The notes below the pieces were generated by a model. The model was not told the DNA's origin and searched no databases. It was given only the letters and a program-made list of their open reading frames with translations. Both the position numbers and the translations under genes were made by a program. 40,000 nucleotides of DNA, from positions 37,181-77,180 of the forward strand of contig DATLSU010000020.1 in assembly GCA_035533975.1 (NCBI GenBank). Reading direction: 5' to 3'. The DNA comes from Patescibacteria group bacterium. GTDB lineage: Bacteria > Acidobacteriota > Terriglobia > Acidiferrales > UBA7541. Shown here piece after piece: positions 434-18,357 of this stretch (position 1 is the stretch's first letter; each line of letters begins with the position of its first letter).

Positions 434-2335
434 CTAGCGGTGCTTGGCGCGCGCCTTCAGAACATTGTTGTCCAGAAAGTCCGGGACGTTCTTTTCCCGC
501 ACCAGGATTGGATAACGCGAGCCGCCGTGATAGTCGATCGTGCACGTCTTGTTGTAGCCGTCGTTGAGCACGATCAGTTGGAGGGGTGCGGAATTCGTGC
601 TGCTGGCCGCGATCGCGTTCCGCAAAAGCGTGGGCGAAAATGCCCTGCCGTTCACTTCGATCACTTTCATTCCGGGCGTGATGCCGGCCTGGAACGCGGG
701 GCCGTTCCAGATCGAATCGTACACCGTCCCATCTCCACTGACACCGAGCCCGATGGAATAGAGGGCGTTCACGCCGCCCCCGTATCGCCGTTGCCCTCCG
801 CTGGGAGGCTGATCGGTGAATTCCAGTTTCCACCCCGCCGCTTCGACTCCGCCCAGTGGCGCCTGGGCTGATGTCGAATCCAGGCGCTCGTTGAGGAATG
901 TCGCCCAGTCGTAGGGAGCGACCTGGTTCAGCGCGCGGACCAGATCGTCGAAGGTGTAGGTTTCGAGTTGCGGTCCCTTGTTCGGACCGCCGAAGAACAG
1001 CTTGCAGAAATCATCGAGCGATTTCCGGCCGTGGGTCTGGCGGTTGATGATCGTGTCCACCTCCAGCCAAAGCAGATCCCCTTCTTCGTAGTAATCGGTT
1101 CCGCGCAGCCAGTTCATCCACCGGCCCGGATCCTCCTGTTCCATCGGTTCGGCGACCGCCGTATCCAGCAGCGGCCTCCAGGTTCGTCCGGGGCGCCCCG
1201 GCCCGAGCGATGCGGCGACTTCGGCCAGGTAGTGGTGGTAATCGTCCTTGGTCCACAAGCCGCTGCGCGTCGCCAGAACGTTGCCCCAAAAGTCGGTCAG
1301 TCCCTCGTAGACCCACAGCATGTCGGTTTTCTCGGGCACCTCGTAGTAGGGCGTACTCAGGTCGGCCGGGCGGCGGAATTTGCCGTTCCACGAGTGGGTG
1401 AATTCGTGCGCCAGCAAAGCGCCCACGTCGATCGCCGCGCTGGGCCCGGTCAACGTTCGTTCGGGCAGCCGGCTGTCGTCCGATTCGTGGTGTTCCAGGC
1501 CGAAATGCGAAACGTAATTGCTCAGCGTCAGCAGAAAGTGGTAGTCGCGGTAGTGCCGCGTGCCGAACAATTTCCCCGTTTCCGCCACCAGGTTCGTCAG
1601 GCCTTTGCGGACCTTCTTGCTCATGTCGAGGGCTTCCGGACTATCGGCCGCGATATCGATCTCGTGGTGGATGGGCTCGCCCGGCGGCGTCAGATCGATG
1701 GCCCGGTAATACTCGCCCGCGATCACCGGCGAATCGACCAGCCGGTTGAGCGAAACCGGCTGGAAGACGATCTGGTTTCCGGAATGGCTTTTGACCGCCA
1801 GCGCCGTGCCGAACTGCCAGCCGTCGGGCAGCACGAGCGTCGCGTCGAAGGTTTGATCCTGCGCGCGAATCGCCGCCAGATACAACAGGTCTTGATTCCA
1901 ATTCACGTCCACCAGCTTGTCGGTCGACGATACCCCTTCCGTGTATTCCCCGTGCGAGCCGCTCGGCTCGAGATATTGGAACGCGATATGCAGCCGGCTC
2001 ACTCCCGGCGGCACATCCAGATGGAAGGTCCACGCGTCGAGCAGATCGCGTTTCCACGGAATGGTTTTTCCGTTCGCGGTGAGCTTCAGGCCGGCGACGC
2101 TCATGACCGGTCCGTCGGGCGCGTGCTCGCCGGGAATCCATTTCGGGTAGTAAAGCGTCAGGGGGCCGGGACGCACCGGCACGTCCATTTCGGTGCGAAT
2201 GATTCCTTCCGGGGCCTGGCGGGCGTCGACGGTCAACTCGATCGTCGGCCCTGCCAGCGCAAACGCCGGCACGGCCAGAGCGAGCGACAGAGCCAGATAC
2301 AGGTATGAGAACAAACGAAATCGGGAACGGCACAT
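434..2335 (-). CDS. M61 family metallopeptidase (glycyl aminopeptidase-like) with C-terminal PDZ-like region, secreted
   Basis: HEFTHSWNGKFRRP zinc motif typical of M61. Signal-peptide-like N-terminus MCRSRFRLFSYLYLALSLALAVPAFA. Start chosen at ATG 2335, preceded by GAAGGAGGA. The longer ORF start at 2428 lacks an RBS. Confidence 0.85.
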   Translation of the reverse strand: MCRSRFRLFSYLYLALSLALAVPAFALAGPTIELTVDARQAPEGIIRTEMDVPVRPGPLTLYYPKWIPGEHAPDGPVMSVAGLKLTANGKTIPWKRDLLDAWTFHLDVPPGVSRLHIAFQYLEPSGSHGEYTEGVSSTDKLVDVNWNQDLLYLAAIRAQDQTFDATLVLPDGWQFGTALAVKSHSGNQIVFQPVSLNRLVDSPVIAGEYYRAIDLTPPGEPIHHEIDIAADSPEALDMSKKVRKGLTNLVAETGKLFGTRHYRDYHFLLTLSNYVSHFGLEHHESDDSRLPERTLTGPSAAIDVGALLAHEFTHSWNGKFRRPADLSTPYYEVPEKTDMLWVYEGLTDFWGNVLATRSGLWTKDDYHHYLAEVAASLGPGRPGRTWRPLLDTAVAEPMEQEDPGRWMNWLRGTDYYEEGDLLWLEVDTIINRQTHGRKSLDDFCKLFFGGPNKGPQLETYTFDDLVRALNQVAPYDWATFLNERLDSTSAQAPLGGVEAAGWKLEFTDQPPSGGQRRYGGGVNALYSIGLGVSGDGTVYDSIWNGPAFQAGITPGMKVIEVNGRAFSPTLLRNAIAASSTNSAPLQLIVLNDGYNKTCTIDYHGGSRYPILVREKNVPDFLDNNVLKARAKHR

Positions 2336-2433
2336 GCGGGATCCTCCTTCCCGTGCGGCGAGACGCGTTGTAGCAATTGGAGACGATACCGCGCAGCAGG
2401 CCGCAACGATGTTAGGCTTCGTTTCCAACCCCC

Positions 2434-2447
2434 GTCAACGCGAGCAG
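2434..2447. repeat. Left target-site duplication, gtcaacgcgagcag
   Basis: Identical 14-mer in direct orientation at 15795-15808, immediately outside the inverted repeats. Length is ambiguous at 14-17 bp because ccc precedes both copies. Confidence 0.75.
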
Positions 2448-2480
2448 GGGATAGGAGATAGAGCCGCGCAAAACCGGCCC
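2448..2480 (+). repeat. Left terminal inverted repeat of casposon-like element
   Basis: gggataggagatagagccgcgcaaaaccggccc matches the reverse complement of 15762-15794 at 29 of 33 positions, the first 17 perfectly. Weaker similarity continues about 40 nt inward. Confidence 0.75.
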
Positions 2481-2558
2481 TCAACATGTCGTGGGTCGGC
2501 GGCTGGGCGGACGCAAGGGAGGAATTGCACTGGGCAAGCATGCGAGAAGTATGGTGCG

Positions 2559-2975
2559 TTATGGCAGAAAATAGCATGGAAATCGCATGCTTATTCCCAA
2601 CCGCTCTGGAAGTTGCATCCTCGTGACTTTTTCAATCACAGGTGGCAAGTCTATGTGGTAATTCTGGGACAGCTGAAACGCTGCTTCATTATAGAATTCA
2701 ACCACCTGAAAATTGCTACCGAATCTCCTCTCAAACGTGTTGTCATCATAAAATGCAAATGGATCAAGAAAATACACCTCGACCATCCCCTTAATCACCA
2801 ATCCGCGTTCAGCAGCACTCGCTAGCGGACCAAACCGTTGACGCAGCAACATCATAGTTTTCAGATTGTCTTCCGAAAGGCGCATGGTGCGATATTGCGC
2901 ACCGTTCAGGATGTCCTCACGAGTGAAACCTATGACAGAAAAAACATCTGCATTCTTAAACTCAGGTTCTGCCAT
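2559..2975 (-). CDS. Hypothetical protein, 138 aa, last gene of the leftward operon
   Basis: ATG start with GGGAG upstream. Lies 27 nt downstream of the HEPN gene on the same strand. No motif recognised. Confidence 0.55.
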   Translation of the reverse strand: MAEPEFKNADVFSVIGFTREDILNGAQYRTMRLSEDNLKTMMLLRQRFGPLASAAERGLVIKGMVEVYFLDPFAFYDDNTFERRFGSNFQVVEFYNEAAFQLSQNYHIDLPPVIEKVTRMQLPERLGISMRFPCYFLP

Positions 2976-3002
2976 TTGCTCTATACTCCCATGCGGCGAA
3001 TG

Positions 3003-3731
3003 TCAGTCAAGGTTTTCCCTAAGAAGACTATCTAAATCACTTTCATTTCGTAGGCGCTCCCCGGTTTCGGCATCTAAGGCTGCGAGAGACAATCTATTGA
3101 GTATTTCTTCCCGGTGATCTCTGCCGCGCAGGTAAAGCACAAAGAATCGAAGAATTGCCAGACGGATCGGAGAAGCCCACCGTTCGCATTCCTCATGTGT
3201 GACAAACTTGCCCTCAAGGTAAGGATCCACATCGTACTGGCCATGCACTAATTGACTTCTGCGTGAGTAGAACTTCTTTATTTCACGGAAAATGTTGGCT
3301 CTCTCTTCCGGTGTGGTTCCCACAAGCTGACTCACGCTCTGCGCAATGCGAAATGTGAATTCACTTTTGTCATTTGGCGAAAGTAGCGATTCGAGGGCAA
3401 TGGCTAAACTGATTAGTCTGTCGGCTGGCTTGTCCTGCGTGTGACTGAATTCAAAATAATCTCCGGCGCGATAACTGGACTGACGCAAGCTGCTACGGAG
3501 GTCGTTTATTCGATCAAGAAACTTCGGGTGCTGATATAGCGCCCACCAGCGGGTGACGGTATCTCGCTCATCTGCGTTAAGAGTGTAAAATCGACGACCG
3601 CCTTCATATGGGAAACGACGAGGATTCCCGATAAAGAAAACTCCCCACTTGCGGATTTGGTTGACCCATTCCGGCAGGAAGTGAGGCGCTGCATAATCAA
3701 TGTGAACTACTCCATCCTTGAAGTATTGCAA
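3003..3731 (-). CDS. HEPN domain protein (Apea/ApeA-like), probably the C-terminal part of a frameshifted ~470-aa gene
   Basis: LISLAIALESLL ... FRIAQSVSQLVG ... KKFYSRRSQLVHG contains the Rx4-6H HEPN motif in its usual helical context. The only start candidate is TTG, without an RBS. The frame opens directly at the A7 tract. Confidence 0.6.
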   Translation of the reverse strand: MQYFKDGVVHIDYAAPHFLPEWVNQIRKWGVFFIGNPRRFPYEGGRRFYTLNADERDTVTRWWALYQHPKFLDRINDLRSSLRQSSYRAGDYFEFSHTQDKPADRLISLAIALESLLSPNDKSEFTFRIAQSVSQLVGTTPEERANIFREIKKFYSRRSQLVHGQYDVDPYLEGKFVTHEECERWASPIRLAILRFFVLYLRGRDHREEILNRLSLAALDAETGERLRNESDLDSLLRENLD

Positions 3732-4420
3732 CGCGTGGAGGAAAAGCTCGGCCTTGTTTTTTTCTCAAATAGCCACTTGACGGGCTCTTCACACGGCCCT
3801 TCCTGTTCCGAGACGATGAAAAACTCACCCGTGCCAGGGGGATTGAAGAAGGATACCGCAGAGGTCTCGCCGAGTATTTTTGAGATGGTAGGGCCGCCGA
3901 GGCGCTCCATCCTCACGTCTCCGAATTTCAGACTCGGTTCTTCGGCATGAAAGTTGAACACGTGACACAGTGATATTGCCTTGAAGCGTCCCTCCCCATA
4001 AATGGTGGCATCAAATCGCTGAAAGAGTTCCTCCAATCTCTCCTGGGGTGCACCGTCGTTGATCAGCAATGCAGCAGGACTCACAAACCCGACATCGAGA
4101 CAGTGAGCGAGGGGACCGAGACCAACACAACATTCTCTTAATTGCCTATCTTGAGCCAATATATCCGAAAGCGTTGTCCGCACTCGGTCACCCTCGAATC
4201 CGGCAGTGGAGAATTGTCCGCGCCTAGTCTCCAGGAACTTGGCTTGTTCCGCATCAGCAGGCTCCATGACCCAAGGGAAAGCGAGATACAGAAATGGCGA
4301 GGCGGCATCTGGAATGATTGTTTCTGTCCGCGTTTTGATGGTTGCCACCACGCGTGCCTGCGCGATGAGAAATTCTTTCAATTGTGAGTATTTCTCGGGG
4401 GTTGTATTAGTTGTGGACAT
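3707..4420 (-). CDS. Hypothetical protein, probable N-terminal part of the HEPN (ApeA-like) gene
   Basis: ATG start 50 nt downstream of the PolB stop. The ORF overlaps the HEPN ORF by 25 nt in another frame. Its tail after the A7 tract (TRPSFSSTRCNTSRME) looks like out-of-frame read-out. Confidence 0.55.
   Translation of the reverse strand: MSTTNTTPEKYSQLKEFLIAQARVVATIKTRTETIIPDAASPFLYLAFPWVMEPADAEQAKFLETRRGQFSTAGFEGDRVRTTLSDILAQDRQLRECCVGLGPLAHCLDVGFVSPAALLINDGAPQERLEELFQRFDATIYGEGRFKAISLCHVFNFHAEEPSLKFGDVRMERLGGPTISKILGETSAVSFFNPPGTGEFFIVSEQEGPCEEPVKWLFEKKTRPSFSSTRCNTSRME
3757..3763 (-). other. A7 homopolymer (minus strand GAG AAA AAA ACA) at the junction of the two ORFs; candidate -1 frameshift site or indel
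   Basis: In the -1 frame a TGA lies immediately 5' of the tract. After the tract that frame reads NKAELFLHALQYFKDG and continues into the HEPN ORF. Confidence 0.5.
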
Positions 4421-4470
4421 AGCATCACATTTCCTAACTTAAGATGAAAAGCCCAGCGCCGTATTCTACA

Positions 4471-7400
4471 TCAAGACTGGTTTATGGGCGTGTGTCCAGT
4501 TCTTCCCACTATATCGATGAGGCGCATCCGGTGTGATCGACGCGGCCTGCTCCGCGCGGCCCTGATCTCTTTCAGCGCACTCGGTGACATACCACTCTTT
4601 TTCACGAGGACCGACAGCGGTATTTTCTTCAACGCGGGCAGGATTGTCATTTGCCACTCATCCCGCTTGGGGTCCGGGTATTCGGTGTAAACCCCGCGCT
4701 CATCGTGAATCAGCCCGGCTTCTACATCTTCCAGACGGTTCGATTCTTTGCCGATACACTCGATGTGCTCAATTCGAATATGCCTTCGATACAACAGGCC
4801 AACGGTTTGTTTGACACAGGGGTTTCCGTTTGCATCGGCGCATTTTGATTCCGGGTGAAACTCGTATTCCTGCAAAACGTCGCCGTAGGTTTTGACGCGA
4901 GCGCAGTGCCTGGCGCCGTGGTGCCCTGCCGTTGTGATCCCGAATTCATTTCCCGAGTACAGGTCAGTCCAATCCATGCGCATCCATTTCATTGGATTTG
5001 ATTCGTATGGTGCGATGAGATGAAATCGTGCAGGGTCCACACCGACGGGATGGCCCAGGGGACTGATGTGGCACGTCAAAAGAAAATTGAACGGTTTGAT
5101 TTGGTCGCTGTATTTCTTGCTCTTGTTGAGCCGGGCAAAGGACCGCATAACGGTGGGGCTACTGATCGTCACGCGCCCCACGGCAGGTGATCCCTCGAAT
5201 CCCATTTTCCCCGTGCTCATGCCGAGCGAACGGCGCACGATGTTAAGCCACGCCTGCCTGATCCAGTCCCGGTCTTCACTCTCGGGATCGGTCGGATTCA
5301 ACAGATGCCCGAGGCCATGCTCTGACCATCGAAGCAACACAGGTTCACCCCCGCCATCCTGCAGAAAGAGTGCGTATCGTTTGGCTGAAATTGCCAAGCA
5401 GTACAGCTGCCGCTGACGACCAGTTTTCGGATCGAAATTGTCATCTTCTATTTTGAGAACGGACCCCGGCACTGCGCTGCGGTCGTAAGGGTTGAGCGCA
5501 GCGAAGCTCTCAGCAATCTCTCTCACTTGTGCCCATGACAAGGCCTTGATGGCTTCGCGGCCATCCTGCATCTGATACGGTCCACCAGGACATGGCACAA
5601 GTCCTCCATGCTCAGTGACCACAATCGCCATTGAATCTGTATCCTCCATCGCGTTCGTGCCACCCAATTCAGTGACTGAGTGTTCCAATAAGGCCAACAT
5701 GAGACGTGCCGCGCCTGTAATCAGCGAAGCGAGTGGAGGGAAGCAATATTCGCCCGGCACCTCTGGGTGAGCGACACGGCAGGCGAAGGGGTCTGCGTCA
5801 ATCCCGTGGCACGTCACGTTTGACTCTCGGTCAGCTTCTTGGCGGTTCATCTCCGCATAGATTCCATAGCTGGTCGAATTCGCGAGGACTTTTAGCGCTT
5901 TATCGAGCCGTCTTTTCTCAATGTCGGTGAGGTCGGAACGTGATGACAAGTGTTTCCGTTCCTCGATTACGACTCTGAAAAAATCCTCACGTCTGGGATC
6001 GACTTCGATAGCACCACGCAGCTTCACAGGCGCGAGGCCTGGAAGCGTACCTTGAGGCTCCATACGGAAGGCATCGACAATTTTGGGTATGCGCCCGGTC
6101 AAAAGCACAGACGCGACAACATCCGGGAGTGAGAACCACAACGCCACGCTGTCCTCGCTGCCCTTGGCGTAGAGATGATTGATGCCAATCTGCCAATCGT
6201 TGCCTCCTGTGCCGTATCTCGCCCGCGTCGGCAAAATATCCCCATTCGGAATGACTTTCACGAACGCAGGCAAGCGTAGCCACGTCTCGGGCTTGAAAAG
6301 ATCGGCAGGCTTCAAATGTCTTAGGAATTCCTCAATTTCACTTTGGCAGTGCTCGACAACCTTAACCTCGTTCGCTATGACGTATTGCCAAAGCCCCATG
6401 AGGCTGTTGACCGTGGGATACATCGAAAGAAAATCCACGTATACAACCGGAACCGGCACTTTGCGGATGTGGGCGCTGGCACGTCCACCGAAGAAAGCAG
6501 ACTGTGCGTATCCCAAATATTTCCTGGGAAAATCTGGCTGTCTTTCAAGGATGGGGATGATCCCCATGGCCCGCAGGTATGCCTTCCCGATGGAAGCAGG
6601 AGAATACGCCCTTGTGGCCTGAAGACTGATCGGATGTTTTTGATACTCTTCGATCAGCTTGCACGCCAATTCAGATGTTGCCAGAACGTCGCGCCGGTTG
6701 TAATCGATGTATTCCTCAGTGACTTCTCCGTGATGGTTTGTTTTCTGCTTTCCATGTGCGACACCGAACGCCTCGCACGCAGATTCCAGAGAATAGCCCC
6801 GGTCGGTTAGTGCAAATGCGAGTGTGCGCAAATCCAGCAAGTGACCGCGAAATTTATATCCCGGTTCAGGCTGACCGCTCGGCGATCCTTCGGGGATCAT
6901 ATCGGTCCGGTCCGCATTGTTCCGTGCTGTGAACCCCTTCAACGCACGCTTGCTATCGATCTGCTTGATGCCGATTCTGGGCCGGAAGTGATTTGTTCTT
7001 TGTCGCCCGTTCTTGTCCGTGTATTGCCACATGCCAAGTGAAAAGCCGCCAGCGAATCGGCCCCGCGCCGGTGCACAATCGTGGGCGATTCGCGACAGGT
7101 CAAACGGCTGATTGAAGGCAACGACAAGACATCGGCCTTTGTATGCAGCGAAATAAAGCACGTCCAGGAACTCGTTCAGGGATAACAAGCGCAGTTCCGG
7201 TCTGCCTTCCTGACACGTCTCGGCTCGGTGCGTTGCAACGTAGCGTTCCAGGATTTCGCGTTCCTTCGCTGGCAGTTCATCGGCGTATAAAAGTCCCTCT
7301 TCCAAGCATTCCCCGTTTACGAAAAACCGATAGCTTCCAAACGTCAAGCGTTGGGTGGGGTCGGTGCGTGTTTCTGTGTCGAAGACAAGCATTGCGGAAG

Positions 7401-7503
7401 GCAATTCGGGTGCCTGCTGTTTTCTGTTACTCCCTTTCGCGTCCGGTGGCTCCGGGTAAACGCGAACGGCAATAGGTAGCGATATTGGCTGATGAATCGA
7501 CAT
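4471..7503 (-). CDS. Family B DNA polymerase with 3'-5' exonuclease domain, 1010 aa
   Basis: ExoI MLVFDTET (D42, E44). ExoII NQPFDLSRI. ExoIII YIDYNRRDVLAT. Motif A DFLSMYPTVN. Motif B KVLANSTSYGIYAE. Motif C AMEDTDSMAIV. KxY-like AISAKRYALF. Confidence 0.9.
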   Translation of the reverse strand: MSIHQPISLPIAVRVYPEPPDAKGSNRKQQAPELPSAMLVFDTETRTDPTQRLTFGSYRFFVNGECLEEGLLYADELPAKEREILERYVATHRAETCQEGRPELRLLSLNEFLDVLYFAAYKGRCLVVAFNQPFDLSRIAHDCAPARGRFAGGFSLGMWQYTDKNGRQRTNHFRPRIGIKQIDSKRALKGFTARNNADRTDMIPEGSPSGQPEPGYKFRGHLLDLRTLAFALTDRGYSLESACEAFGVAHGKQKTNHHGEVTEEYIDYNRRDVLATSELACKLIEEYQKHPISLQATRAYSPASIGKAYLRAMGIIPILERQPDFPRKYLGYAQSAFFGGRASAHIRKVPVPVVYVDFLSMYPTVNSLMGLWQYVIANEVKVVEHCQSEIEEFLRHLKPADLFKPETWLRLPAFVKVIPNGDILPTRARYGTGGNDWQIGINHLYAKGSEDSVALWFSLPDVVASVLLTGRIPKIVDAFRMEPQGTLPGLAPVKLRGAIEVDPRREDFFRVVIEERKHLSSRSDLTDIEKRRLDKALKVLANSTSYGIYAEMNRQEADRESNVTCHGIDADPFACRVAHPEVPGEYCFPPLASLITGAARLMLALLEHSVTELGGTNAMEDTDSMAIVVTEHGGLVPCPGGPYQMQDGREAIKALSWAQVREIAESFAALNPYDRSAVPGSVLKIEDDNFDPKTGRQRQLYCLAISAKRYALFLQDGGGEPVLLRWSEHGLGHLLNPTDPESEDRDWIRQAWLNIVRRSLGMSTGKMGFEGSPAVGRVTISSPTVMRSFARLNKSKKYSDQIKPFNFLLTCHISPLGHPVGVDPARFHLIAPYESNPMKWMRMDWTDLYSGNEFGITTAGHHGARHCARVKTYGDVLQEYEFHPESKCADANGNPCVKQTVGLLYRRHIRIEHIECIGKESNRLEDVEAGLIHDERGVYTEYPDPKRDEWQMTILPALKKIPLSVLVKKSGMSPSALKEIRAARSRPRRSHRMRLIDIVGRTGHTPINQS

Positions 7504-7507
7504 TCGC

Positions 7508-8008
7508 TTAACGCCTGGGTGTGAATTTTCTTAGGTCAGTCTTCTCCCACCATCCCGGCCCGTGCTGTTCAACCATCGATGCGTTATACGTTTCAAGCAT
7601 GTTTGCAATCCGAAGGAGCAATTCCTTCATGAGATAAACGAGAGTGTCTACAAAGCCCCGGATGGACGCGGCTGCCGCAAGCACCGGATTTCCGTCCGGG
7701 TTTTCCAGAGTGTCTTTTGGCCAGTCGTGTTGGGCTGGGCTCAGGACCGCACGGTGATCATTGACCGGCACGGGGACGGTCGCATTGCTATTCGACTTGC
7801 CCGCGACGTGGTGCGCATCGCATATGCTCTTCCCCTGCCCCTTCCGCTGGCAGGCTGCGCAGATGGTGGGGTTGCTTCCCTTTATGAGTGCTTCCGGTCG
7901 GCTCTCACCGCACGCGCATTTCTTGCCCGCTCCGATCCGCCGCGCCGCACTAGCTTTGCGCTGGTATTTTCTGATTGGATTACGCGGTGGTGGTTCCTTC
8001 GGCATCAT
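7508..8008 (-). CDS. HNH-type nuclease, 166 aa
   Basis: CACG...CAAC cysteine pairs followed by DAHHVAGKSNSNATVPVPVNDHR (an HH...N...H pattern). Start ATGATG overlaps the upstream stop (ATGA). Stop lies 4 nt before the PolB ATG. Confidence 0.6.
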   Translation of the reverse strand: MMPKEPPPRNPIRKYQRKASAARRIGAGKKCACGESRPEALIKGSNPTICAACQRKGQGKSICDAHHVAGKSNSNATVPVPVNDHRAVLSPAQHDWPKDTLENPDGNPVLAAAASIRGFVDTLVYLMKELLLRIANMLETYNASMVEQHGPGWWEKTDLRKFTPRR

Positions 8009-8550
8009 GCAACCCCCGCATAGAGAGATTCGAACGACAAAGCGCCAGCCGACGCCAGTCGGTCCAGAACTTCCAGATCGGTCAGCAGTGGGATTCGCTT
8101 TCGGCTGGCGTCCATGATGCGCTTCTTCCTGAATTTCTCCAGAGCTGACGCATCCCCCGTTTGCAGATATTTCTGAACGGCTGCCCAATACTGACCAAGA
8201 CGGCTCGCCTGCCGAGAATCGCGAAGGGCAATTTCTCTCACCCCCTCAGGGGAAGGAATGGTGAGGACCCGAAGCAGCGTATCAGTGGGTCTTGCTGCGT
8301 ACCGCCCATTGCGGCCCTTGCGCAAGGCAGGCTTGGCCCAGCGGATCACCGTGCGCGGACCAAGACCAAATTCCTGGGACGCCTGTGTGAGCGACACCCC
8401 GTCGGCTCGCATCTTTGAGACCGCGTGGGTGATGCGGTTCCAGCGGTCTTGGGATCGGGCAGGCATGGCGGAAAATTGCTTTAGAGTTCGCGGTGCTACA
8501 AGCCGAATTCTCGTTGACCGACGTTTGCGATTTTTTCTTTTTGCTTTCAT
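8005..8550 (-). CDS. HTH DNA-binding protein with basic N-terminus, first gene of the leftward operon
   Basis: MKAKRKNRKRR basic tail. HTH-like segment VSLTQASQEFGLGPRTVIRW. Start set at the internal ATG 8550. Confidence 0.6.
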   Translation of the reverse strand: MKAKRKNRKRRSTRIRLVAPRTLKQFSAMPARSQDRWNRITHAVSKMRADGVSLTQASQEFGLGPRTVIRWAKPALRKGRNGRYAARPTDTLLRVLTIPSPEGVREIALRDSRQASRLGQYWAAVQKYLQTGDASALEKFRKKRIMDASRKRIPLLTDLEVLDRLASAGALSFESLYAGVA

Positions 8551-8607
8551 GCAGACAGGTTTTCGCGAACGCGAGGTAAACTCAATCAAGCGTCATTGTA
8601 TTTGGGG

Positions 8608-9399
8608 ATGAAATTGTCGCAACCTAATGAAAACAAAAGCCGAGGCAGACCGAGAAAAACTACCGATGAAGAACTTTTACGCTACGAGGGACTTTGGGTT
8701 GACACTTTCACTGGCCTGCGCGACGGCACCTCTGAGGCTGAAACCGTCGTTCCCGCCAGATCGGGCATGTTTGTCAAATCGAGCGGGGGAGAACGCGAAC
8801 GGGTGTATTCACACGTTCCGGGCGAAGCCCCGCGCGTTGTGCATGAGCCAAGGTTTTCCACCACTCCCGACGAGAAGCGGCGTTGGACACTTCGCAAACA
8901 AGAAGAGGAAAAGCAGTTTGAAAAGACCATCCTGACGCCGCATGTTGACATTGCTCCAGCCATTCCCGATGAACGCAGCTTATGGGAAGCACTGAAGCGA
9001 GCACAGACAGCTGCTCAGGTCCGGAGAATTTGCAGTCGATCCAAAATATGGCTGAGGCCTCGAAGAATTGAGTTTCCGGACGGCGGTTTCGTGGAGTGGT
9101 GGGCCTTTCGGAGAGTCTTGTACCAAAGAGCGCAGGAATTTTGCCGAGCGAAACTCGACCCCCGGTATCCTGGGCGGGACCAGAGGGCATCGGGAGACTA
9201 CCGGAGAATCGAATATTTCGCTCGTGTGCTGTCAGGCCTAACCGTTGGGCTTGCGCCATCAACCGCCGTGGAGCGACTTAGAAGAATGCGGCATCCGGGA
9301 GAATGCGGGTGTTGGCGCTGCTTCCTGGGGATCGGCTCACAGTACGGTAAGAGCTTGGTACAACTTTTGTGCGAGCGCGGCCCCGCATGGCGAATATAA
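8608..9399 (+). CDS. Hypothetical protein, 263 aa, first gene of the rightward arm
   Basis: Long ORF divergent from the HTH gene. Basic N-terminus SRGRPRKTTDEE and C-terminal CGCWRC. No family recognised. Confidence 0.55.
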   Translation: MKLSQPNENKSRGRPRKTTDEELLRYEGLWVDTFTGLRDGTSEAETVVPARSGMFVKSSGGERERVYSHVPGEAPRVVHEPRFSTTPDEKRRWTLRKQEEEKQFEKTILTPHVDIAPAIPDERSLWEALKRAQTAAQVRRICSRSKIWLRPRRIEFPDGGFVEWWAFRRVLYQRAQEFCRAKLDPRYPGRDQRASGDYRRIEYFARVLSGLTVGLAPSTAVERLRRMRHPGECGCWRCFLGIGSQYGKSLVQLLCERGPAWRI

Positions 9400-9446
9400 G
9401 CGTTGTTCACTCAAGCAAAGAAAGGTTGACTGATACCTCTAAATAG

Positions 9447-9460
9447 ACTACATATGTAGT
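9447..9460. promoter_or_regulatory. Perfect 14-bp palindrome actacatatgtagt, candidate operator
   Basis: Self-complementary 14-mer abutting the GTG start of the Xis-like HTH gene. TTGACT lies at 9425-9430 upstream. Confidence 0.4.
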
Positions 9461-9682
9461 GTGAGTATACGCTTAACGACAGTCGAAACCGCTACGAAAA
9501 CGGGTCTCAATCGTGTCACCCTTCAGGAGTGGATTCGAACGGGCCGAGTGAAGGCTCCAAAGCTGGTGCTCCGCAACGGTAGGGCGGTGCGCCTCTGGTC
9601 TCAATCTGACATAGAGAGTTTGCAGCGGGTGAAGGCAGAAATCTACCGCAAAGGTAGAGGACGGAAGAAAAGCAAAGCATGA
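9461..9682 (+). CDS. Excisionase/MerR-superfamily small HTH protein, 73 aa
   Basis: LTTVETATKTGLNRVTLQEWIRTGRVKAPKL...RLWSQSDIESL matches the HTH_17/Xis-type pattern. GTG start. Confidence 0.65.
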   Translation: MSIRLTTVETATKTGLNRVTLQEWIRTGRVKAPKLVLRNGRAVRLWSQSDIESLQRVKAEIYRKGRGRKKSKA

Positions 9683-9751
9683 CAGAGCAGGACGCGCCGG
9701 TGCAGCAGCACCGGACGCGCCCCTAACCACCAAAGGAGGCGTCACACTCCA

Positions 9752-11392
9752 ATGGCAGCTACGCAGACGTTACCGCAGGTCCCGCAGGTCGGCAATTTCG
9801 AGGTTCCATCCTCAACCCCACCGGAACTCGGCATTTCAAAGAGCCAAACCGTAGAAGTGCTCACGCCAAGACGCGGTGTGGTTACTCTTTTTGGTTACGG
9901 GATCAGGGTCCGCGTGGATCGGGGCCACCTGATTCTTGAGGACGGGATCGGTGCTGCCCGTCGCGCGGGACGCTTCTCCCGCGTGAGGCATGGGCTAAAG
10001 CGTGTGGTTGCCATCGGGTCGGATGGCATGGTTTCGCTTGCGGCGCTCCGCTGGTTGGCTGACCAGGACGCGGCCTTTGCGATGCTCGACCGTAACGGCT
10101 CAGTGCTTGCCGTGACCGGCCCCGTTCGCCCCTCTGATGCCCGCTTGAGACGCGCTCAGGCTCTTGCAGTGCAATCCGGAACCGGCCTGCGAATTGCGCG
10201 ACAATTGGTGAATCAGAAAGTCGCTGCCCAGGAGCGGCTGGCCAGCGATGGCCTGCAAGCCCCGGCTGTTGCGCAAACGATTCGCGAAGCTCGGTCTGCA
10301 TTGGCTTCGGCTGCGACGATTGATTCCCTTCGCGCACAGGAAGCGCAGGCAGCCCACGCTTATTGGTCCGCATGGCGCAACATCCCGCTCACCTTTCCTA
10401 AGCAGGATGCCCGCCGCGTGCCGGATCACTGGCTGACTTTCGGGACGCGCATTTCTCCGCTTTCGGGTTCCCCCCGCCTTGCCGCCAATCCGGCTAATGC
10501 CATCCTGAATTACCTGTATGCCATCCTCGAAACGGAAGCCCGGCTTGCCGTTGCAGCACTTGGCCTCGATCCCGGTCTTGGCGTTATGCACCTCGATAGC
10601 CGGACACGCGACAGCTTGGCTTGCGATTTGATGGAACCGATCCGGCCACAGGTGGACGCCTATTTGCTCGAATGGATCACCCGCGAGGCATTCCGCCGGG
10701 AGTGGTTTTTTGAAGAGCGCAACGGCAACTGCCGCCTCATGGCTTCACTCGCTACCCAGTTGGCCGAAACCGGGCCGACTTGGGCAATGGCCGTTGCGCC
10801 CCTGGCGGAATGGGTGTCCCACACGCTGTGGAGAAGCATCTCCAAGTCAGTTCGCCGAAATTCGCCAGCAACAAGGCTCACCCAGTCTCACAAGCGCGGG
10901 GCCAAAGGAGCGACTCTCATGCCACCAGCCAAGCCCCTGCCCAGGCCTCCAGCTGTTTGCCGGGATTGCGGTGCCCCAATCAAACCAGGCCGGAATTACT
11001 GCGCTTTCTGCGGAGTTGTTTTTTCGAGGGCGGGTCTCATAGAGGCTGCAAAGCTCGGGCGAGCGGCCGGGCACAGCCCAGAGGCGCGTGCCCGCCAAGC
11101 TAAGAAGCAACGCCGCAATGCCGCTGCACTGAAGAGGTGGAATCCCACGGAGCAACCCGAGTGGCTGACGGAAAATTTCTATCGCGAAGAGATTCAGCCG
11201 CATCTTGCGGGTGTCACCGTACCGGCCATTGCTTCCGCCCTTGGCCTTTCCCAGCCTTACGCGGCGAGGATTCGGGCCGGTAAACAGTGCCCTCATCCAA
11301 GACATTGGCAAGCGTTGGCGCGGCTAGCAGGAGCTTCGCGGGATCGGAAGACACATCTTCAATGGTCGGCAAGCCGAATCGGAAGCCTATAG
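9752..11392 (+). CDS. cas1: Cas1 homolog (putative casposase) with C-terminal zinc ribbon and HTH, 546 aa
   Basis: NAILNYLYAILETEARLAVAALGLDPGLGVMHLDSRTRDSLACDLMEPIRPQVD carries the Cas1 catalytic E, H and D/E positions. CRDCGAPIKPGRNYCAFCG (10958-11014) is a CxxC...CxxC ribbon. VPAIASALGLSQPYAARIRAG is HTH-like. Confidence 0.9.
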   Translation: MAATQTLPQVPQVGNFEVPSSTPPELGISKSQTVEVLTPRRGVVTLFGYGIRVRVDRGHLILEDGIGAARRAGRFSRVRHGLKRVVAIGSDGMVSLAALRWLADQDAAFAMLDRNGSVLAVTGPVRPSDARLRRAQALAVQSGTGLRIARQLVNQKVAAQERLASDGLQAPAVAQTIREARSALASAATIDSLRAQEAQAAHAYWSAWRNIPLTFPKQDARRVPDHWLTFGTRISPLSGSPRLAANPANAILNYLYAILETEARLAVAALGLDPGLGVMHLDSRTRDSLACDLMEPIRPQVDAYLLEWITREAFRREWFFEERNGNCRLMASLATQLAETGPTWAMAVAPLAEWVSHTLWRSISKSVRRNSPATRLTQSHKRGAKGATLMPPAKPLPRPPAVCRDCGAPIKPGRNYCAFCGVVFSRAGLIEAAKLGRAAGHSPEARARQAKKQRRNAAALKRWNPTEQPEWLTENFYREEIQPHLAGVTVPAIASALGLSQPYAARIRAGKQCPHPRHWQALARLAGASRDRKTHLQWSASRIGSL

Positions 11393-11728
11393 CATCGAAG
11401 ACCCCCTATCTCGATCACGGCTGGACGCCTTCGCATTCCGCTCATTCTTCAGTAATTAAACAAGTGTTGTCGGAAAACAAAAGTTTTCTGTGGAAACTAT
11501 TTTCTAATGTTATTTCACTGGACGAAGGTCTTGTCATCCTGAAATACTTTTTCAGGACATAGAAAGTAGGTGGCAGGCAGCCAATTCAGGTGTCTCCCCT
11601 CCGCAGCGACTCAAGGAAACACGTCTTCCGATGGAAGGCGGGTTTCCAAATGAATTCCGTTTGTGATGGTGAGGGTCATGCCGCTGGCAGACTGCCCATT
11701 GCTGCAACTACCGGCTTGAGGAGAACAA

Positions 11729-11941
11729 ATGCCGAGAAGAAACTTGGAATCTCAAATCGTGCGGCTCCGACAGGAAATCGAAAGGCTCTCTGCTGAGCAC
11801 GCGGAGAAGATGAAGCAACAATCGAGCACAGCGAATGCCAAGCTGCGCGCAGCAGAGGCGAAGCGAGCCGAAATCCTGGCTCGCCGCATACGTCAACTGA
11901 ATGAGATGCTGGACGCCCTTCAGCGTGCGCAGTCAAATTGA
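11729..11941 (+). CDS. Small coiled-coil protein, 70 aa
   Basis: Heptad-like charged sequence LESQIVRLRQEIERLSAEHAEKMKQQ...LNEMLDALQRAQ. ATG start. Confidence 0.45.
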   Translation: MPRRNLESQIVRLRQEIERLSAEHAEKMKQQSSTANAKLRAAEAKRAEILARRIRQLNEMLDALQRAQSN

Positions 11942-12081
11942 GTGCTTGCCCACACGGGAAGCACGATCAAAAATGACGTCGAACACCCACCGGGACAGTG
12001 AATGAACTATCGAACCGAACGATGGTGCAATATATGAGTTCCGGTCGACTGAGCACCGATCCGTTCCCTGCCCCCTCTGGC

Positions 12082-12369
12082 CTACCCCAGGTCGAGAAGC
12101 GCAGCTTCGGCCCTAAGGCTTTCCAGAGTGTCTCGCAGGAGTTTCCTCGACTCTACACCGAACGATTTGGCCACAGCCTCAACGTCCTCCATGATCCAAG
12201 CCGCCGAGATGTCTACCGCCTCAGAAGGAGCAGCTTCACCATCGCCGCAGGTCTTCACTTGCCGTTTCGAAACGGTTAAGCGGAGCGAGCTCCCCCGTTC
12301 ATTACTACGCATGAGGGCCACCTTTGTACAAGAATTGTTCCGAGATGGAGACAAGAACATGTTTGGCAC
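12082..12369 (-). CDS. Hypothetical small protein, divergent from the XRE gene (strand assignment uncertain)
   Basis: A 95-aa ORF. A competing 150-aa ORF on the plus strand (12128-12580) covers the same DNA and cannot be excluded by eye. Confidence 0.3.
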   Translation of the reverse strand: MPNMFLSPSRNNSCTKVALMRSNERGSSLRLTVSKRQVKTCGDGEAAPSEAVDISAAWIMEDVEAVAKSFGVESRKLLRDTLESLRAEAALLDLG

Positions 12370-12591
12370 GCTATCACTTTTCGCCTGGAATGCTGAGAGC
12401 TATACCCGTGGGAAAGTGGCGACCTTGCCAAGTGCCTTTGGAGTAAACGTTCCAGCAGTGACGTTCGACTCAATAGCACGAAAGTGCCATGGATTGCGCC
12501 ATGTCCCGAACCTCCGCGTACTGGGCTGGCAATACCTTCAAGTTATAATGCTCTTGCTTTGCTCTGTAGCTCCGCGATAATCGTTTTCATT

Positions 12592-12945
12592 ATGATCATT
12601 GGCGAACGCATTAGAACCTTGAGGGAACTGAAGGGGCTCTCGCAGGGCGATATCGAGAAACGCAGCGGCCTGTTGAGATGCTACATTTCCCGCGTCGAAA
12701 ACGGTCACACCTCGCCGTCACTGGAAACCCTGGAGAAGTTCTCACGGGGGCTCGAAGTACCCCTACATGAACTGTTCTATGAGGGCGAGGAAGCTCCGGT
12801 TTTGTCTTCGCTAACCGCTGAAGACATCACCTTGCAGCCAAATAGCGGCCCGTCACTGCACCGACTCGCGGAACTGTTCAGAGGGTTGGGTCAGCAGGAC
12901 CGCCAGATCGTGCTTCAGACAGCCGAGCGGTTAAGCAAGATTTAG
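12592..12945 (+). CDS. XRE-family HTH transcriptional regulator, 117 aa
   Basis: IGERIRTLRELKGLSQGDIEKRSGLLRCYISRVENGHTSPSLETLEKFSRGLEV is a canonical Cro/C1 HTH. Start set at ATG 12592. Confidence 0.85.
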   Translation: MIIGERIRTLRELKGLSQGDIEKRSGLLRCYISRVENGHTSPSLETLEKFSRGLEVPLHELFYEGEEAPVLSSLTAEDITLQPNSGPSLHRLAELFRGLGQQDRQIVLQTAERLSKI

Positions 12946-13022
12946 CTTGTGCTGGCGCAGGTATGCTAGTGGGCTTGCAAGCTGACAGGGTGTTCCCAGC
13001 CCCCAAATCGAGCAAGGAAAGA

Positions 13023-13535
13023 CTACTCGCAAGCTCTCCCATAAGCCGGACGATCCCCTGCGTCTTCGGCCTGTGCCTGTGTCATGTATTCGCCGTGCTT
13101 CGTGGTCCCATACCACCTCGTGCCGGGGCAATGATAGACGCCCGAGGACGTATTGACCCAAACCTTTACGTTGGGATTGCCTTGATGCTCAGTCTTACCC
13201 GTTGTGCTCCCATGCTTCTTGGACGTGTTGGGCGAGGCAGACTCGCCTCCGCCCGACTGACAGGTTCTTCCGTATGCGGGGCGGTAACCCTTTTGTTGGG
13301 CCTCACCCTGCGCCATGTATTCGCCGCTCTTTGTTGCCCCATACCACCTCGTGCCAGGGCAGTGGTAAACCCCAGAATGTGTGTTGACCCAGACCTTGAT
13401 CTTGGAATTGTCCTGACTCTGTGAATGAGAGCGAGCTGTGTCCGACAACCCGTGCGGAATAGTGTTGGCTGGAACAGATGCCGGGACGAACAGCAAGGCC
13501 ACGATGAGGCCAATGGTTGCCAGCAGCCGACGCAT
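13023..13535 (-). CDS. Secreted protein with two tandem ~55-aa Cys-containing repeats
   Basis: Signal peptide MRRLLATIGLIVALLFVPASVPA. AAGGAGG lies 5 nt upstream of ATG 13535. Repeat KVWVNTxSGVYHCPGTRWYGxTKxGEYMxQxxAxxxGxRPAYGRxC occurs twice. Confidence 0.8.
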   Translation of the reverse strand: MRRLLATIGLIVALLFVPASVPANTIPHGLSDTARSHSQSQDNSKIKVWVNTHSGVYHCPGTRWYGATKSGEYMAQGEAQQKGYRPAYGRTCQSGGGESASPNTSKKHGSTTGKTEHQGNPNVKVWVNTSSGVYHCPGTRWYGTTKHGEYMTQAQAEDAGDRPAYGRACE

Positions 13536-13869
13536 AGCCACCTCCTTGTGATCTAAGAAAAGACCCCTGGGGCTAGAGAACCTTTTAACACCAATCGCGA
13601 GGTGTGGAACACATAAAGGTGATTTTGTTTTCTCAGGAAAGACCGGCGCAGGATCGATCCGAGATGCCCCTTCCTATCGGGTTAGATTGAATCGTTCGAG
13701 TGCGGGAATAGCGGTTAATCCTTGCGACATAATCCATTGGAAACGAACGTGTCGCGTCGTAGCATATCTGCCAACGGACGCTGTTGATGTACAGGGGGGC
13801 GCATCCTGGAAACGTGCGGCCTTCTTTCTCCTGCTGCGGCCTGAATGGCCAGGAGGGTAACAACCCCAA

Positions 13870-14178
13870 ATGACGAAAGAGCAATTGGGCGAAAGCCTCA
13901 GGTCGAGGCTGGCTCAGAAATGCACGCGCGGAGAAATGGACGGGAATCTGCCCAGTGGCAGGGAGTCTTTCTCGGAAAACCTGAAGAACACGAACGATGA
14001 CAACCTGATAGTTGGCTTCCTGAAGTGCGCCGTATGCGGTCAGATGAGCATGTCAGTGGAAGAAGCCGTGCGGTTCGCAGGGCATTGCGAAACCGCTGAT
14101 GATTGGGTCAGGTTCCTGGTTGGTTGGCAACAGCAGTTCGGTTGGTGTTGTCACGACATCGGCAAGCCGAATTGCTAG
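13870..14178 (+). CDS. Hypothetical Cys-rich protein, 102 aa
   Basis: ATG-initiated ORF in an AT-richer region. CAVCG and HCE/WCCH cysteine/histidine clusters. No family recognised. Confidence 0.4.
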   Translation: MTKEQLGESLRSRLAQKCTRGEMDGNLPSGRESFSENLKNTNDDNLIVGFLKCAVCGQMSMSVEEAVRFAGHCETADDWVRFLVGWQQQFGWCCHDIGKPNC

Positions 14179-14417
14179 GGGTACCCAGAGACATTGGGAG
14201 CCTATTGCACGGCGTTTTTCACTTAGGCCGGAGTTAACTCCTAGTCAACAGGTACCTCACATCAAGGCAAAGTCTCCGGCTCCGGAAACGTTGTATTCCC
14301 CCGAAACGAGAAATAGGTGAAAACAATACCTACATTGGTGATAGGGGTGTATAAGATATGCGTTGCCAGTGTTAATGGATGTCGGCCTTGAAAGTTCGGC
14401 CGAAAGGAGTACTGAGA

Positions 14418-15239
14418 ATGAAACACACATGGAGAATTGCACTCGCTTTGCTGTTGGGAGCGAGCACGGTGATGGCGCAGAATCCGGTGACGACGCCTGC
14501 GCCGGAACCCAAGCCAGCAGCGACTCCTGGGATCGTTCTGCAAGACGGCACGCCCGTGAAGCTCCGGTTGACTGAAACTATCTCGTCGGCAAGCGCTCAC
14601 GTAAACGACACCGTTCCCTTTGAAGTACTGGAGCAGATCAAGGTAGGCGGTCTCCTCGTCATCCCCAAAGGCAGCATGGCCTGGGGCACAGTGACCGAGG
14701 CGCAGCATAAACGGAGACTTGGCCGGGCAGGAAAACTCAACATCAGCGTTGTCGCCGTAAGGTTGCAGGACGGCGAAAAAGCCGCGCTCCGCGCCGTCAA
14801 GGATGTCAAAGGCGGCGGCCACCAAGGAGCGATAACGGGGGCAATCGTTGCGACAAGCATTGTATTTTTCCCGGTGGCCCCTCTGTTTCTTCTAATTCAT
14901 GGCAAAGATATAACCATCCCGCAAGGTACCGAAATTACGGCGTACATAAACGGGGACATGCCAATTGATCCGTCTAAATTCGGTGCGACGAATGCACCAG
15001 CGAATGCCGTAGCCAGCCCTGAGACCGTCCTGATTCAATCTGTGCCTACGGGAGCGGACATAACGATTGACGGTAACTATGCGGGGAGTACACCCTCGAC
15101 CCTGAAGCTCGGTCCTGGCCAGCACACAATTATTGTCAGCAAGTCCGGGTTCAAGCCTTGGCAGCGTACACTCAGCACTGAACCCGGCGCAAATGTCACT
15201 GTTGGCGCGACGTTGCAGGAGGACCAGAAAAAACAGTAA
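14418..15239 (+). CDS. Secreted PEGA-domain protein
   Basis: AAGGAG RBS before ATG 14418. Signal peptide MKHTWRIALALLLGASTVMAQ. C-terminal IQSVPTGADITIDGNYAGSTPSTLKLGPGQHTIIVSKSGFKPW is PEGA-like. Confidence 0.8.
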   Translation: MKHTWRIALALLLGASTVMAQNPVTTPAPEPKPAATPGIVLQDGTPVKLRLTETISSASAHVNDTVPFEVLEQIKVGGLLVIPKGSMAWGTVTEAQHKRRLGRAGKLNISVVAVRLQDGEKAALRAVKDVKGGGHQGAITGAIVATSIVFFPVAPLFLLIHGKDITIPQGTEITAYINGDMPIDPSKFGATNAPANAVASPETVLIQSVPTGADITIDGNYAGSTPSTLKLGPGQHTIIVSKSGFKPWQRTLSTEPGANVTVGATLQEDQKKQ

Positions 15240-15761
15240 AGAAAGGCTGTTGCATAACGCCCAACGAATCAGCCGCACGACAATATCGCGCCCGGCGTCG
15301 GTTCGACGGTGGAGTCTCGCGGAGGGAAAGAAAATTCCGCACTTGAAAATCCCGTGGAAGAACCGCCGGGACTGAGGGGAGGGCAAACGCGGTACGTTCC
15401 CTACAAGGTCGAGGCTACCTGTCGCCCGGAGTCCCCGGAGTTGGGTGCAGGGTAGAGGCGGGCTGGCTGGGCCGCAGCCTCTTTCTTCTATCATAGGAGT
15501 AATCTCGGAAGCCTTAGCTCCCGTCAATAGCTCGCGAGCTTTGTCAGACAGACCGCCACCCTCGCCCAATAGGTCTGCTAGCTTGAAATCTGCCATCGCA
15601 CACTGCGTGGTCGCTTTCAGCAGGTCCAGCAGAACGGCATTTTCCCCCGCGAGCACCCTTGAGCCTGCCACCCATGCCTCCCCCCCCCAGTGCGCGCACG
15701 GCCCAGGCCACACCAATGAGTGCCCTTGTGCCCACCCTCGCCTCAACCACAAGCCGTAGGG

Positions 15762-15794
15762 GGGCCGGTTTTGGCGCGCTCTATCTCCTATCCC
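15762..15794 (-). repeat. Right terminal inverted repeat of casposon-like element
   Basis: The reverse complement reads gggataggagatagagcgcgccaaaaccggccc. It matches 2448-2480 at 29/33 positions. Confidence 0.75.
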
Positions 15795-15808
15795 GTCAAC
15801 GCGAGCAG
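15795..15808. repeat. Right target-site duplication, gtcaacgcgagcag
   Basis: Perfect direct copy of 2434-2447. Confidence 0.75.
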
Positions 15809-16006
15809 TTGCCGAACAAGAACGGAAGCCGGATCGGAGAAACTCGGATTTCGAGGCCTTTGTCCCCGGGCGCTTGCGGCCGGCGGGCTTATAGCGCGCT
15901 TGCGCGGGACGCCGGGCGGAAATCCTGTCATAATCGATTCCACTTGCAGGACCGGCTGGGACCGTGTGAACGCAGCGGAAAATTCGAAACAATGAGGGGG
16001 CAGGGC

Positions 16007-18252: not shown

Positions 18253-18357
18253 GGGCCGGACCGCGCGCAAAGAAAATTATTGGCTCAATTCCGGCAGCCG
18301 GTGGCGCACGGTGAGGCTCATCATGGGCGCGATCGCATCCCATTCCGCGAACAATTT

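Follow-up and report, generated by a model that had tools for sequence, protein, structure and literature searches.

A probable family 3 casposon inserted at a promoter-like target beside an M61 peptidase gene, and its relatives in Acidobacteriota

The element and its junctions

The stretch of DNA considered here (the window) comprises 40,000 nucleotides of contig DATLSU010000020.1 (GenBank assembly GCA_035533975.1, positions 37,181 to 77,180 of the forward strand; all coordinates below are counted from its first letter) and carries, between a gene for an M61 peptidase and a YceI-like gene, an element of 13,347 bp that is very probably an integrated casposon (2448..15794, bounds set by terminal inverted repeats, or TIRs, and by a target site duplication, or TSD). 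Casposons, which are self-synthesizing DNA transposons, are thought to be ancestral to the adaptation machinery of CRISPR systems. To our knowledge, few bacterial elements of family 3, the family in which the present one is placed below, have been described so far. The guanine-plus-cytosine (GC) content is 0.50–0.57 within the element, versus 0.62–0.66 in its flanks.

The left end consists of a 14-bp TSD copy, GTCAACGCGAGCAG (2434..2447, plus strand), which is the promoter-proximal one and starts with GTCAA, as is the case family-wide, followed by a 33-nt TIR, GGGATAGGAGATAGAGCCGCGCAAAACCGGCCC (2448..2480, plus strand), with a GGG start, an A-run and a C-rich tail. The right TIR, also of 33 nt (15762..15794, minus strand; reverse complement of GGGATAGGAGATAGAGCGCGCCAAAACCGGCCC), pairs with the left one and is followed by the promoter-distal TSD copy (15795..15808, plus strand), an exact repeat of 2434–2447. 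A preliminary description of this DNA had proposed these junctions, with a perfect 14-mer adjoining inverted 33-mers that are identical at 29 of 33 positions, and direct reading of the sequence bore it out in every one of these points, including the confinement of all four mismatches to a single internal block (CGCG versus GCGC). This block can alternatively be read as a C shifted by one base, giving 32 matches and two gaps. No inverted repeat of the 40-kb window, which holds just two copies of the terminus, ranks above this TIR pair, and the pair was absent from 100 dinucleotide-preserving shuffles (0 expected matches). A lone exact 14-mer direct repeat is unremarkable in 40 kb, the longest repeats of simulated windows being of 14–18 nt; the junctions are significant because both 14-mers exactly abut the outer ends of the TIRs (a chance of about 4^-14, given the TIRs) and because the same geometry is found in about 30 related elements. 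The looser similarity that had been described further inward (tgggcggacgcaaggga and others) is noise: when the 170 nt inside each TIR are aligned locally, the highest score is 16, which at least was attained in 446 of 500 shuffles.

Core genes and family placement

The casposase gene (9752..11392, plus strand) encodes a protein of 546 amino acids in which Cas1 is followed by a C-terminal zinc ribbon with four cysteines and a helix-turn-helix (HTH) domain. It matches Pfam Cas_Cas1 (4e-42), HTH_31/HTH_3 and Zn_ribbon, as well as TIGR00287. Residues E197, H280, D292 and E295 are invariant in 18 homologues and align with the NxxLNYxY...GxxH...DLME blocks of A. fulgidus Cas1 (4n06), and the cysteines of the zinc ribbon (C403, C406, C417 and C420) are also invariant. 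By homology, this Cas1 is likely to be catalytically active.

A family-B DNA polymerase (PolB) of 1010 amino acids (973 according to the gene caller, from 7392) is encoded at 4471..7503 on the minus strand and was recognized from its exonuclease and polymerase motifs, Pfam and Foldseek, so that both of the proteins announced for the space between the repeats are present, the polymerase with all its catalytic motifs. Motifs ExoI, ExoII, ExoIII, A, B, C and KxY are invariant across 26 homologues, 18 of which match Pfam DNA_pol_B_2. The predicted fold has an overall pLDDT (predicted local distance difference test) of 63, with a confident catalytic core, and its top Foldseek matches are all PolBs, with a probability of 1.0. 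The C-terminus of the model is a helical bundle (residues 949–1001); a few homologues match HTH families, and this C-terminal domain is probably an HTH. The suggestion that the polymerase is of a type other than those of family 3, which was based on the DNA_pol_B_2 match only, was withdrawn, given that the published group 2/3 polymerases are also HHpred-only assignments with mixed matches.

Two further genes of the minus strand complete the core. The first, orf166 (7508..8008), carries a zinc-knuckle, HNH-like signature (CxCGE..CxxC..DxHH..N..VNDH) that is kept in 17 related loci, and has a weak match to the HNH-type Pfam family RecA_dep_nuc (E 0.011); its position is that of the HNH gene in the family 3 casposon NitAL212-C1, and it probably encodes a divergent zinc-knuckle HNH nuclease. 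The second, orf194 (8005..8589), encodes a conserved HTH protein with weak matches to HTH_23 and HTH_28. Domain scans of the open reading frames (ORFs) of the element revealed no cas family besides Cas1, and no CRISPR array or tandem repeats were found in the 40 kb. Pfam, NCBIfam, PHROG and PADLOC scans of the same ORFs, several of which have no detectable family, yielded no other transposase or recombinase.

The reference casposases, compared by blastp as core blocks, come from an alignment in the supplement of Krupovic et al. 2014 (PMC4046053). The Cas1 of the window scores highest with AceAut-C1 of family 3 (226 bits, 45% identity), followed by four other family 3 references (121–198 bits, 31–36% identity), A. 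boonei of family 2 (98 bits, 24% identity), N. koreensis of family 1 (63 bits) and a CRISPR Cas1 (31 bits). The blastp ranking suggests that the element is a new family 3 (bacterial) casposon, and it is filed there because its Cas1 scores highest to this family and because its architecture matches that of NitAL212-C1, in which the gene order is PolB-HTH, HNH (by HHpred only), HTH, HTH and Zf-Cas1. NitAL212-C1 has a 14-bp TSD and a 35-nt TIR, GGGGTATGTTAACTTCTCCCAAACGCCGTACACTT, which starts with GGGGTA and has an A-run and a C-rich tail.

Related elements

Homologues of this Cas1 number in the thousands in metagenomes, and a scan of one genome per species recovered 404 related loci, nearly all of them in metagenome-assembled genomes (MAGs) of Acidobacteriota. 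All of the 79 loci that were fetched contain Cas1; PolB was found in 72 of them and the orf194 HTH protein in 48, and the remaining cargo of the window is not conserved. Ends were sought in 60 loci, as inverted repeats around Cas1 and by comparison of the outer flanks, and were clean in 36 of them; the related elements span 7.6–17.5 kb. The TSD is exactly 14 bp long, which is the modal length, in 29 of the 60 loci and 13–16 bp long in six more, the cases of 13, 15 and 16 bp being chance extensions or overlaps with the termini. All 64 related termini start with GGG, and an A-run and a C-rich tail are common among them. Relatives at different sites thus combine GGG-start TIRs with a 14-bp TSD, in line with the casposase-type duplication proposed in the preliminary description; this length agrees with casposase duplications determined experimentally (PMC6614799, PMC8464041). 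One Bryobacterales contig holds two casposase genes about 20 kb apart (L063 and L071; CAVUUB010000007.1, 39865–61385 and 60331–81941), corresponding to two full casposons that are adjacent or near-adjacent, and the same MAG holds a third locus (L062).

A promoter-like target motif

The duplications of the relatives were oriented on the GTCAA that they have in common at TSD positions 1–5. Positions 1, 3, 4 and 5 (G, C, A and A) are invariant, T occupies position 2 in 28 of 30 sites, and the remaining nine bases of the TSD are free in sequence. Outside the duplication, a G is frequent at -2, and another block, AGTnTA, with a conserved TA within it, lies about 20 nt upstream of the TSD. In reverse complement, the two blocks read TTGAC(n)-17/18 nt-TAnACT (TAnnnT) and face away from the element, a form that resembles a sigma-70-like promoter pointing into the host gene. 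Of 21 independent site classes, 20 carry TAnnnT at 16–18 nt, whereas it accompanies 4.6% of the 2,820 background GTCAA sites of that DNA (P ~4e-26). As judged from sequence, long, unrelated host genes begin shortly downstream, including those for lysyl- and valyl-tRNA synthetases, trigger factor, thiolase, NuoB and a rhomboid protease. An alternative, that the TAA/TAG conserved 20 nt upstream of the TSD is a stop codon belonging to a conserved gene, is set aside in favour of a DNA motif, since the ORFs located there are short and show no relationship.

A replication set was assembled independently of any selection on Cas1, by searching for metagenomic termini with a 17-nt end sequence. In a collection of this size, chance alone should yield tens of matches to this 17-mer, and only the motif-bearing subset was used. 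The promoter-like motif was found at 24 of 41 GTCAA-proximal junctions, 0 of 20 distal ones and 3 of 37 matches classed as motif-less (Fisher 4.5e-9). The proximal junctions without it mostly have the terminus of another casposon just before them and are, therefore, internal junctions of arrays. The same 17-mer gave 0 matches in viral contigs. This target rule, which is suggested by comparison of natural insertions, is the new part of the present finding.

The insertion site of the window

At the site of the window itself, a promoter scan independently calls TTGACG-18-TAACAT at 2438..2409 on the minus strand, and this is the sole call in 500 nt. The -35-like hexamer TTGACG (2433..2438, minus strand) has five of its six bases in common with the TSD, of which they are the first five, and the -10-like hexamer TAACAT (2409..2414, minus strand) lies 18 nt from it. 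The M61 peptidase gene (434..2335, minus strand; Pfam Peptidase_M61 and Peptidase_M61_N) stands downstream of this promoter-like motif, its ATG being located 98 nt downstream of the -35 hexamer, after GGAGGA. There is no tRNA or other RNA gene at the insertion site, and the sole tRNA of the window (38608–38684) is 23 kb away.

The regions upstream of M61 orthologues (74–80% protein identity) have diverged, yet cgTTGAC and gccTAACATcgtt are kept in all of them. Two M61 lineages (L087; L088–90) have no terminus at this place and represent unoccupied orthologous sites. In one lineage in which the M61 protein is identical across samples, two different casposon termini are found at the same junction, with the 14-mer CCGGGCGCGTTGAC, and the element of L084 has only about 20 nt of terminus in common with that of the window. 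The M61 site is thus a conserved host signal that has been struck repeatedly, and the orthologues keep the motif whether they are empty or occupied by different casposons. Four other junctions, from metagenomes (L129, L187, L197 and L164), have leaders of the form catgttaNgcc, with a -10-like TAACAT, as in the M61 promoter of the window, and this promoter may be a recurrent hotspot for this type of terminus. Two loci, L003 and L004, were taken for empty sites on the basis of their gene layout and proved to be 100% identical filled sites from other samples. In L083, the promoter-distal flank after the TSD starts with tatttaaaaaaaaaaaaaaaaaaa, a long A-run that is odd at about 60% GC and may stem from an artefact of assembly or mark a joint with foreign DNA.

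Arrays and miniature elements

Three exact copies of the 14-bp TSD are found in L049 (at 538, 3433 and 16479), and three copies, with one mismatch, in L036 (at 2189, 18315 and 21406); in both loci, a remnant of about 3 kb and a full casposon appear to share one target, as a tandem array. A terminus-like flank is found on the promoter-distal side in 17 of 31 elements and on the promoter side in 1 of 31, so the intact, Cas1-bearing element is usually the promoter-adjacent one; polarised addition is suggested by this asymmetry alone. The element of the window is a solo insertion. A metagenome contig, L190, carries a non-coding miniature element of 1,249 bp that ends at about 4109, with TIRs GGGATAGGAGATAGAGCGTTTCAA and GGGATAGAAGGTAGAGCGTTTCAA and an exact 14-bp TSD, AAATCACACTTGAC, and that looks like a derivative of the casposon lineage of the MITE (miniature inverted-repeat transposable element) kind.

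Proposed mechanism and alternative explanations

In our view, positions 2448–15794 are occupied by an integrated family 3 casposon with a GTCAA-starting target in a promoter-like motif (probability about 0.9). By homology with casposases that have been studied experimentally (PMC6614799, PMC8464041), the casposase would join the 3'-OH ends of the GGG...CCC termini to both strands of the target, 14 bp apart. The attack on the leader side would take place immediately 5' of the G of GTCAA, that is, between positions 5 and 6 of the -35 hexamer, and the second joint would be placed by a 14-bp ruler, since the other nine bases of the TSD are free. Repair of the two single-stranded gaps would then yield the two copies of GTCAACGCGAGCAG. 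The copy on the side of the host gene keeps the promoter-like motif whole, and the insertion should, therefore, spare the M61 gene. A complete target would also be regenerated and could be used again, which would explain why many relatives form tandem arrays whose intact member stands closest to the promoter. The -10 block may reflect readout by the casposase, the presence of promoter-bound RNA polymerase or the survival of harmless insertions; a rigid, direct readout is disfavoured because the spacing varies (17 or 18 nt), and pure survivorship is disfavoured because GTCAA sites without a promoter are nearly absent. The more specific proposition that this clade uses sigma-70-type promoters as its leader, through the casposase alone or guided by polymerase or sigma, with the first joint in the -35 box, a 14-bp ruler, reuse of the site and promoter-proximal growth of arrays, seems to us evenly balanced.

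Several observations weigh against these interpretations. For the core genes, sequence and profile searches of the PDB and the fold search did not single out one subtype for the polymerase, and the assignment of orf166 is motif-based. For the ends, 23 of the 60 loci gave no clean TIR and TSD by the inverted-repeat method. For the site of the window, TAACAT is a weak -10 match (9/12 overall), and "promoter" is here a sequence-level call; an exact search of metagenome contigs for the reconstructed empty site (CCCCCGTCAACGCGAGCAGTTGCC) gave 0 matches and provided no same-strain empty site, and the unoccupied M61 orthologues are at 74–77% protein identity, with other neighbours on the far side, for which reason the distal joint is left without confirmation from an empty allele. 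For the target rule, the independence of the site classes was judged by the downstream proteins, and some classes with short ORFs were split by eye. The TSD of NitAL212-C1 (AGCCGGTACTGCCC) has no GTCAA, and the rule may, therefore, be limited to the acidobacterial clade.

A different account of the target, which we hold to be distinctly less probable, is that promoter context is not targeted at all: the casposase would read GTCAA only, perhaps with the G at -2, and the insertions seen would be the survivors of harmless landings upstream of core promoters. This would fit the fact that only GTCAA is invariant, the -10 block varying in sequence and in spacing as real promoters do, better than one protein reading both blocks would be expected to allow, and all the data on target choice come from fixed insertions. 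However, neutral, intergenic GTCAA sites without a promoter should be common among survivors and almost none are found, the difference between target classes and the background GTCAA sites of the same DNA being that given above (20/21 versus 4.6%), and, in related hosts, no fewer than three different elements have struck the same M61 promoter, with probable further cases in L129, L187 and L197.

The other alternatives concern the nature of the ends. The preliminary description had left room for a 17-bp duplication (cccGTCAACGCGAGCAG) with termini shifted by 3 nt, because ccc stands before both copies of the 14-mer in the window. We reject this reading as very improbable: the TSD is of 14 rather than 17 bp because the related termini all start with GGG and their modal duplication is exactly 14 bp, and the left ccc is part of the G-rich spacer in the promoter-like motif and also occurs at the orthologous sites free of an insertion. 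A precedent exists in family 1, in which an apparent 22-bp repeat turned out to be a 13-bp TSD (PMC8464041). The sequence ...aaccccc to the left of 2434 was also examined as the relic of an older casposon terminus, and this idea was discarded; its best terminus match (12/24) is below the 99th percentile of the null, and the G-rich spacer occurs in the unoccupied orthologues too. The composite of 47 nt might also have been a short repeat of the REP (repetitive extragenic palindromic) or MITE type, or have arisen by chance, with no connection to Cas1 and PolB, as the preliminary description had allowed. The 17-nt terminus does occur in at least 120 metagenomic stretches, among the 15 stretches whose inner sequence extends over 6 kb or more, just 3 show PolB or Cas1, and the miniature element of L190 has such TIRs and an exact 14-bp TSD. 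Nevertheless, the terminus adjoins 96 different outside 14-mers, so the composite as such is not repeated, and Cas1 lies between the ends wherever whole elements could be resolved: the same class of terminus flanks Cas1 and PolB in 36 loci of the genome contigs fetched by Cas1, and the element of the window is a coding one of 13.3 kb with two terminus copies only. The 51 terminus matches without GTCAA or TTGAC are probably chance noise, and miniature derivatives are usual by-products of autonomous transposons. There is, then, hardly any likelihood left to this explanation. Least probable of all is that the 14-bp repeats are the attL and attR cores of an island mobilized by a tyrosine or serine recombinase, an idea prompted by the fact that direct repeats of 10–20 bp around low-GC islands are typical of recombinase elements and by the site preference of the insertion. 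The scans found no recombinase among the ORFs of the element, the repeats abut inverted termini, and their sequence differs from site to site save for GTCAA, whereas an att core would be fixed for the element; their length is, moreover, that of the experimentally determined casposase duplications (PMC6614799, PMC8464041).

Cargo, flanking genes and source of the DNA

No defence system was recognized in the cargo of the element. A cargo gene at 13023–13535 (minus strand) encodes a repeat protein matching the NCBIfam "sunset domain" and PHROG 33759 (1e-22), and an internal direct repeat of 231 nt (13025–13185 and 13256–13416) corresponds to its two copies of the sunset domain. The final cargo gene before the right terminus (14418–15239, plus strand) encodes a PEGA-domain protein (Pfam, 9e-17) and is not kept in related casposons. 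Two long, mechanically delimited ORFs (14892–16028, minus strand, and 15659–16744, plus strand) span the right TIR and TSD. Public gene calls disagree in this region: that of L003 (2–733, minus strand) corresponds to the minus-strand ORF and another to the PEGA gene, and at least one of them is probably spurious.

In the far flank, the host YceI-like gene (Pfam YceI) is located at 16007..16744 on the plus strand. Beyond it, a gene at 16781–17116 (minus strand) encodes a stand-alone HNH protein of 111 amino acids, the best NCBIfam match of which is the HNH region of IscB (1e-9). This gene was considered as the HNH gene of the casposon and set aside, because its position is beyond the TSD and none of the 79 related loci has a counterpart. 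Further into the host flank, tandem paralogous segments 922 bp apart and 77–85% identical (18295–19989), over minus-strand ORFs of 268 and 290 amino acids, look like a recent tandem gene duplication.

NCBI lists the source MAG as "Patescibacteria group bacterium", and the label of the closest M61 orthologue is "Candidatus Dormibacteraeota". The window has a GC content of 63%, the source contig is of up to 281 kb, and the relatives of both the casposon and its flanking genes are nearly all from Acidobacteriota. The Patescibacteria label is doubtful and looks like an error of binning or classification.

Significance and comparison with known systems

The window provides a family 3 element whose bounds are clean and whose genes are intact, and leads to a large acidobacterial clade in which ends, ruler and target motif are legible from natural insertions. 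The target motif suggests a testable insertion rule for these relatives of the CRISPR integrases, and provides a design of substrates for the first integration assays with family 3 enzymes: oligonucleotides with a GGG-start TIR and a target of the form TAnnnT-N17/18-GTCAA-N9. In the literature searched, experimental work on casposases concerned archaeal enzymes of families 1 and 2, with none on family 3, and nothing was found on acidobacterial casposons, on the target sites of family 3 or on promoter targeting; one group cites an unpublished survey. If a promoter-like leader is indeed recognized, this would be a Cas1 integrase tied to a leader, with polarised addition in the absence of Cas2 and of CRISPR repeats, and would offer a compact enzyme for the placement of cargo immediately upstream of defined promoters. 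It would represent a free-living transposon counterpart of CRISPR leader-repeat integration and an unusual promoter-homing bacterial DNA transposon.

The closest published elements are those of family 3 (AceAut-C1, NitAL212-C1, StrAlb-C1 and HenMar-C1; PMC4046053). They have the same core order of PolB(-HTH), HNH-like protein, HTH protein and Cas1 (an HNH nuclease gene is stated for all members of families 2 and 3), a Cas1 fused to a zinc-binding domain and an HTH, both C-terminal as in AceAut-C1, bacterial hosts and intergenic insertion, with the 14-bp TSD and GGG-start TIR of NitAL212-C1. They differ in host, the elements here being acidobacterial, and in number, a handful of published members comparing with 404 loci among species representatives here, and the GTCAA/promoter-like target rule seen here is unreported for them.

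Family 2 casposons, such as those of Aciduliprofundum boonei and Methanosarcina mazei (PMC5137440, PMC6614799, PMC6977970, PMC10359463), also have TSDs of 14–15 bp, TIRs and a casposase with a C-terminal HTH. Their target consists of a leader motif and the first bases of the TSD, the distal part being sequence-free and set by a ruler: the A. boonei casposase requires the leader motif and the first TSD bases, and is indifferent to the sequence of the distal TSD (PMC6614799). Tandem arrays on one target are likewise described for this family (PMC4779613, as summarised in PMC9939771). In contrast, family 2 elements are archaeal and reside at the 3' ends of tRNA genes, whereas the site of the window is free of tRNA genes, no tRNA was found at the junctions of 35 related loci, and the leader is promoter-like.

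The adaptation step of CRISPR systems, carried out by Cas1-Cas2, involves a homologous integrase, staggered joints that duplicate the intervening sequence, and a leader that specifies the first joint. Units are also apparently added at the leader side, the intact elements being promoter-proximal and the remnants distal in the arrays described here. Unlike CRISPR adaptation, the present system has no Cas2 and no short spacers, its unit being a transposon of 13 kb, the duplication is of 14 bp rather than a repeat of 28–37 bp, and the promoter-like leader faces away from the array instead of into it.

Finally, Tn7 recognizes a conserved host signal (attTn7, through TnsD), inserts beside it and spares the host function, as the casposon of the window is proposed to do, and the paper describing casposons in 2014 already compares them with the safe-haven strategy of Tn7 (PMC4046053). 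Tn7 differs in that its transposase is of the DDE type, its targeting is entrusted to a dedicated protein and it uses a single chromosomal site, whereas the elements considered here are found at many sites that have a short motif in common.

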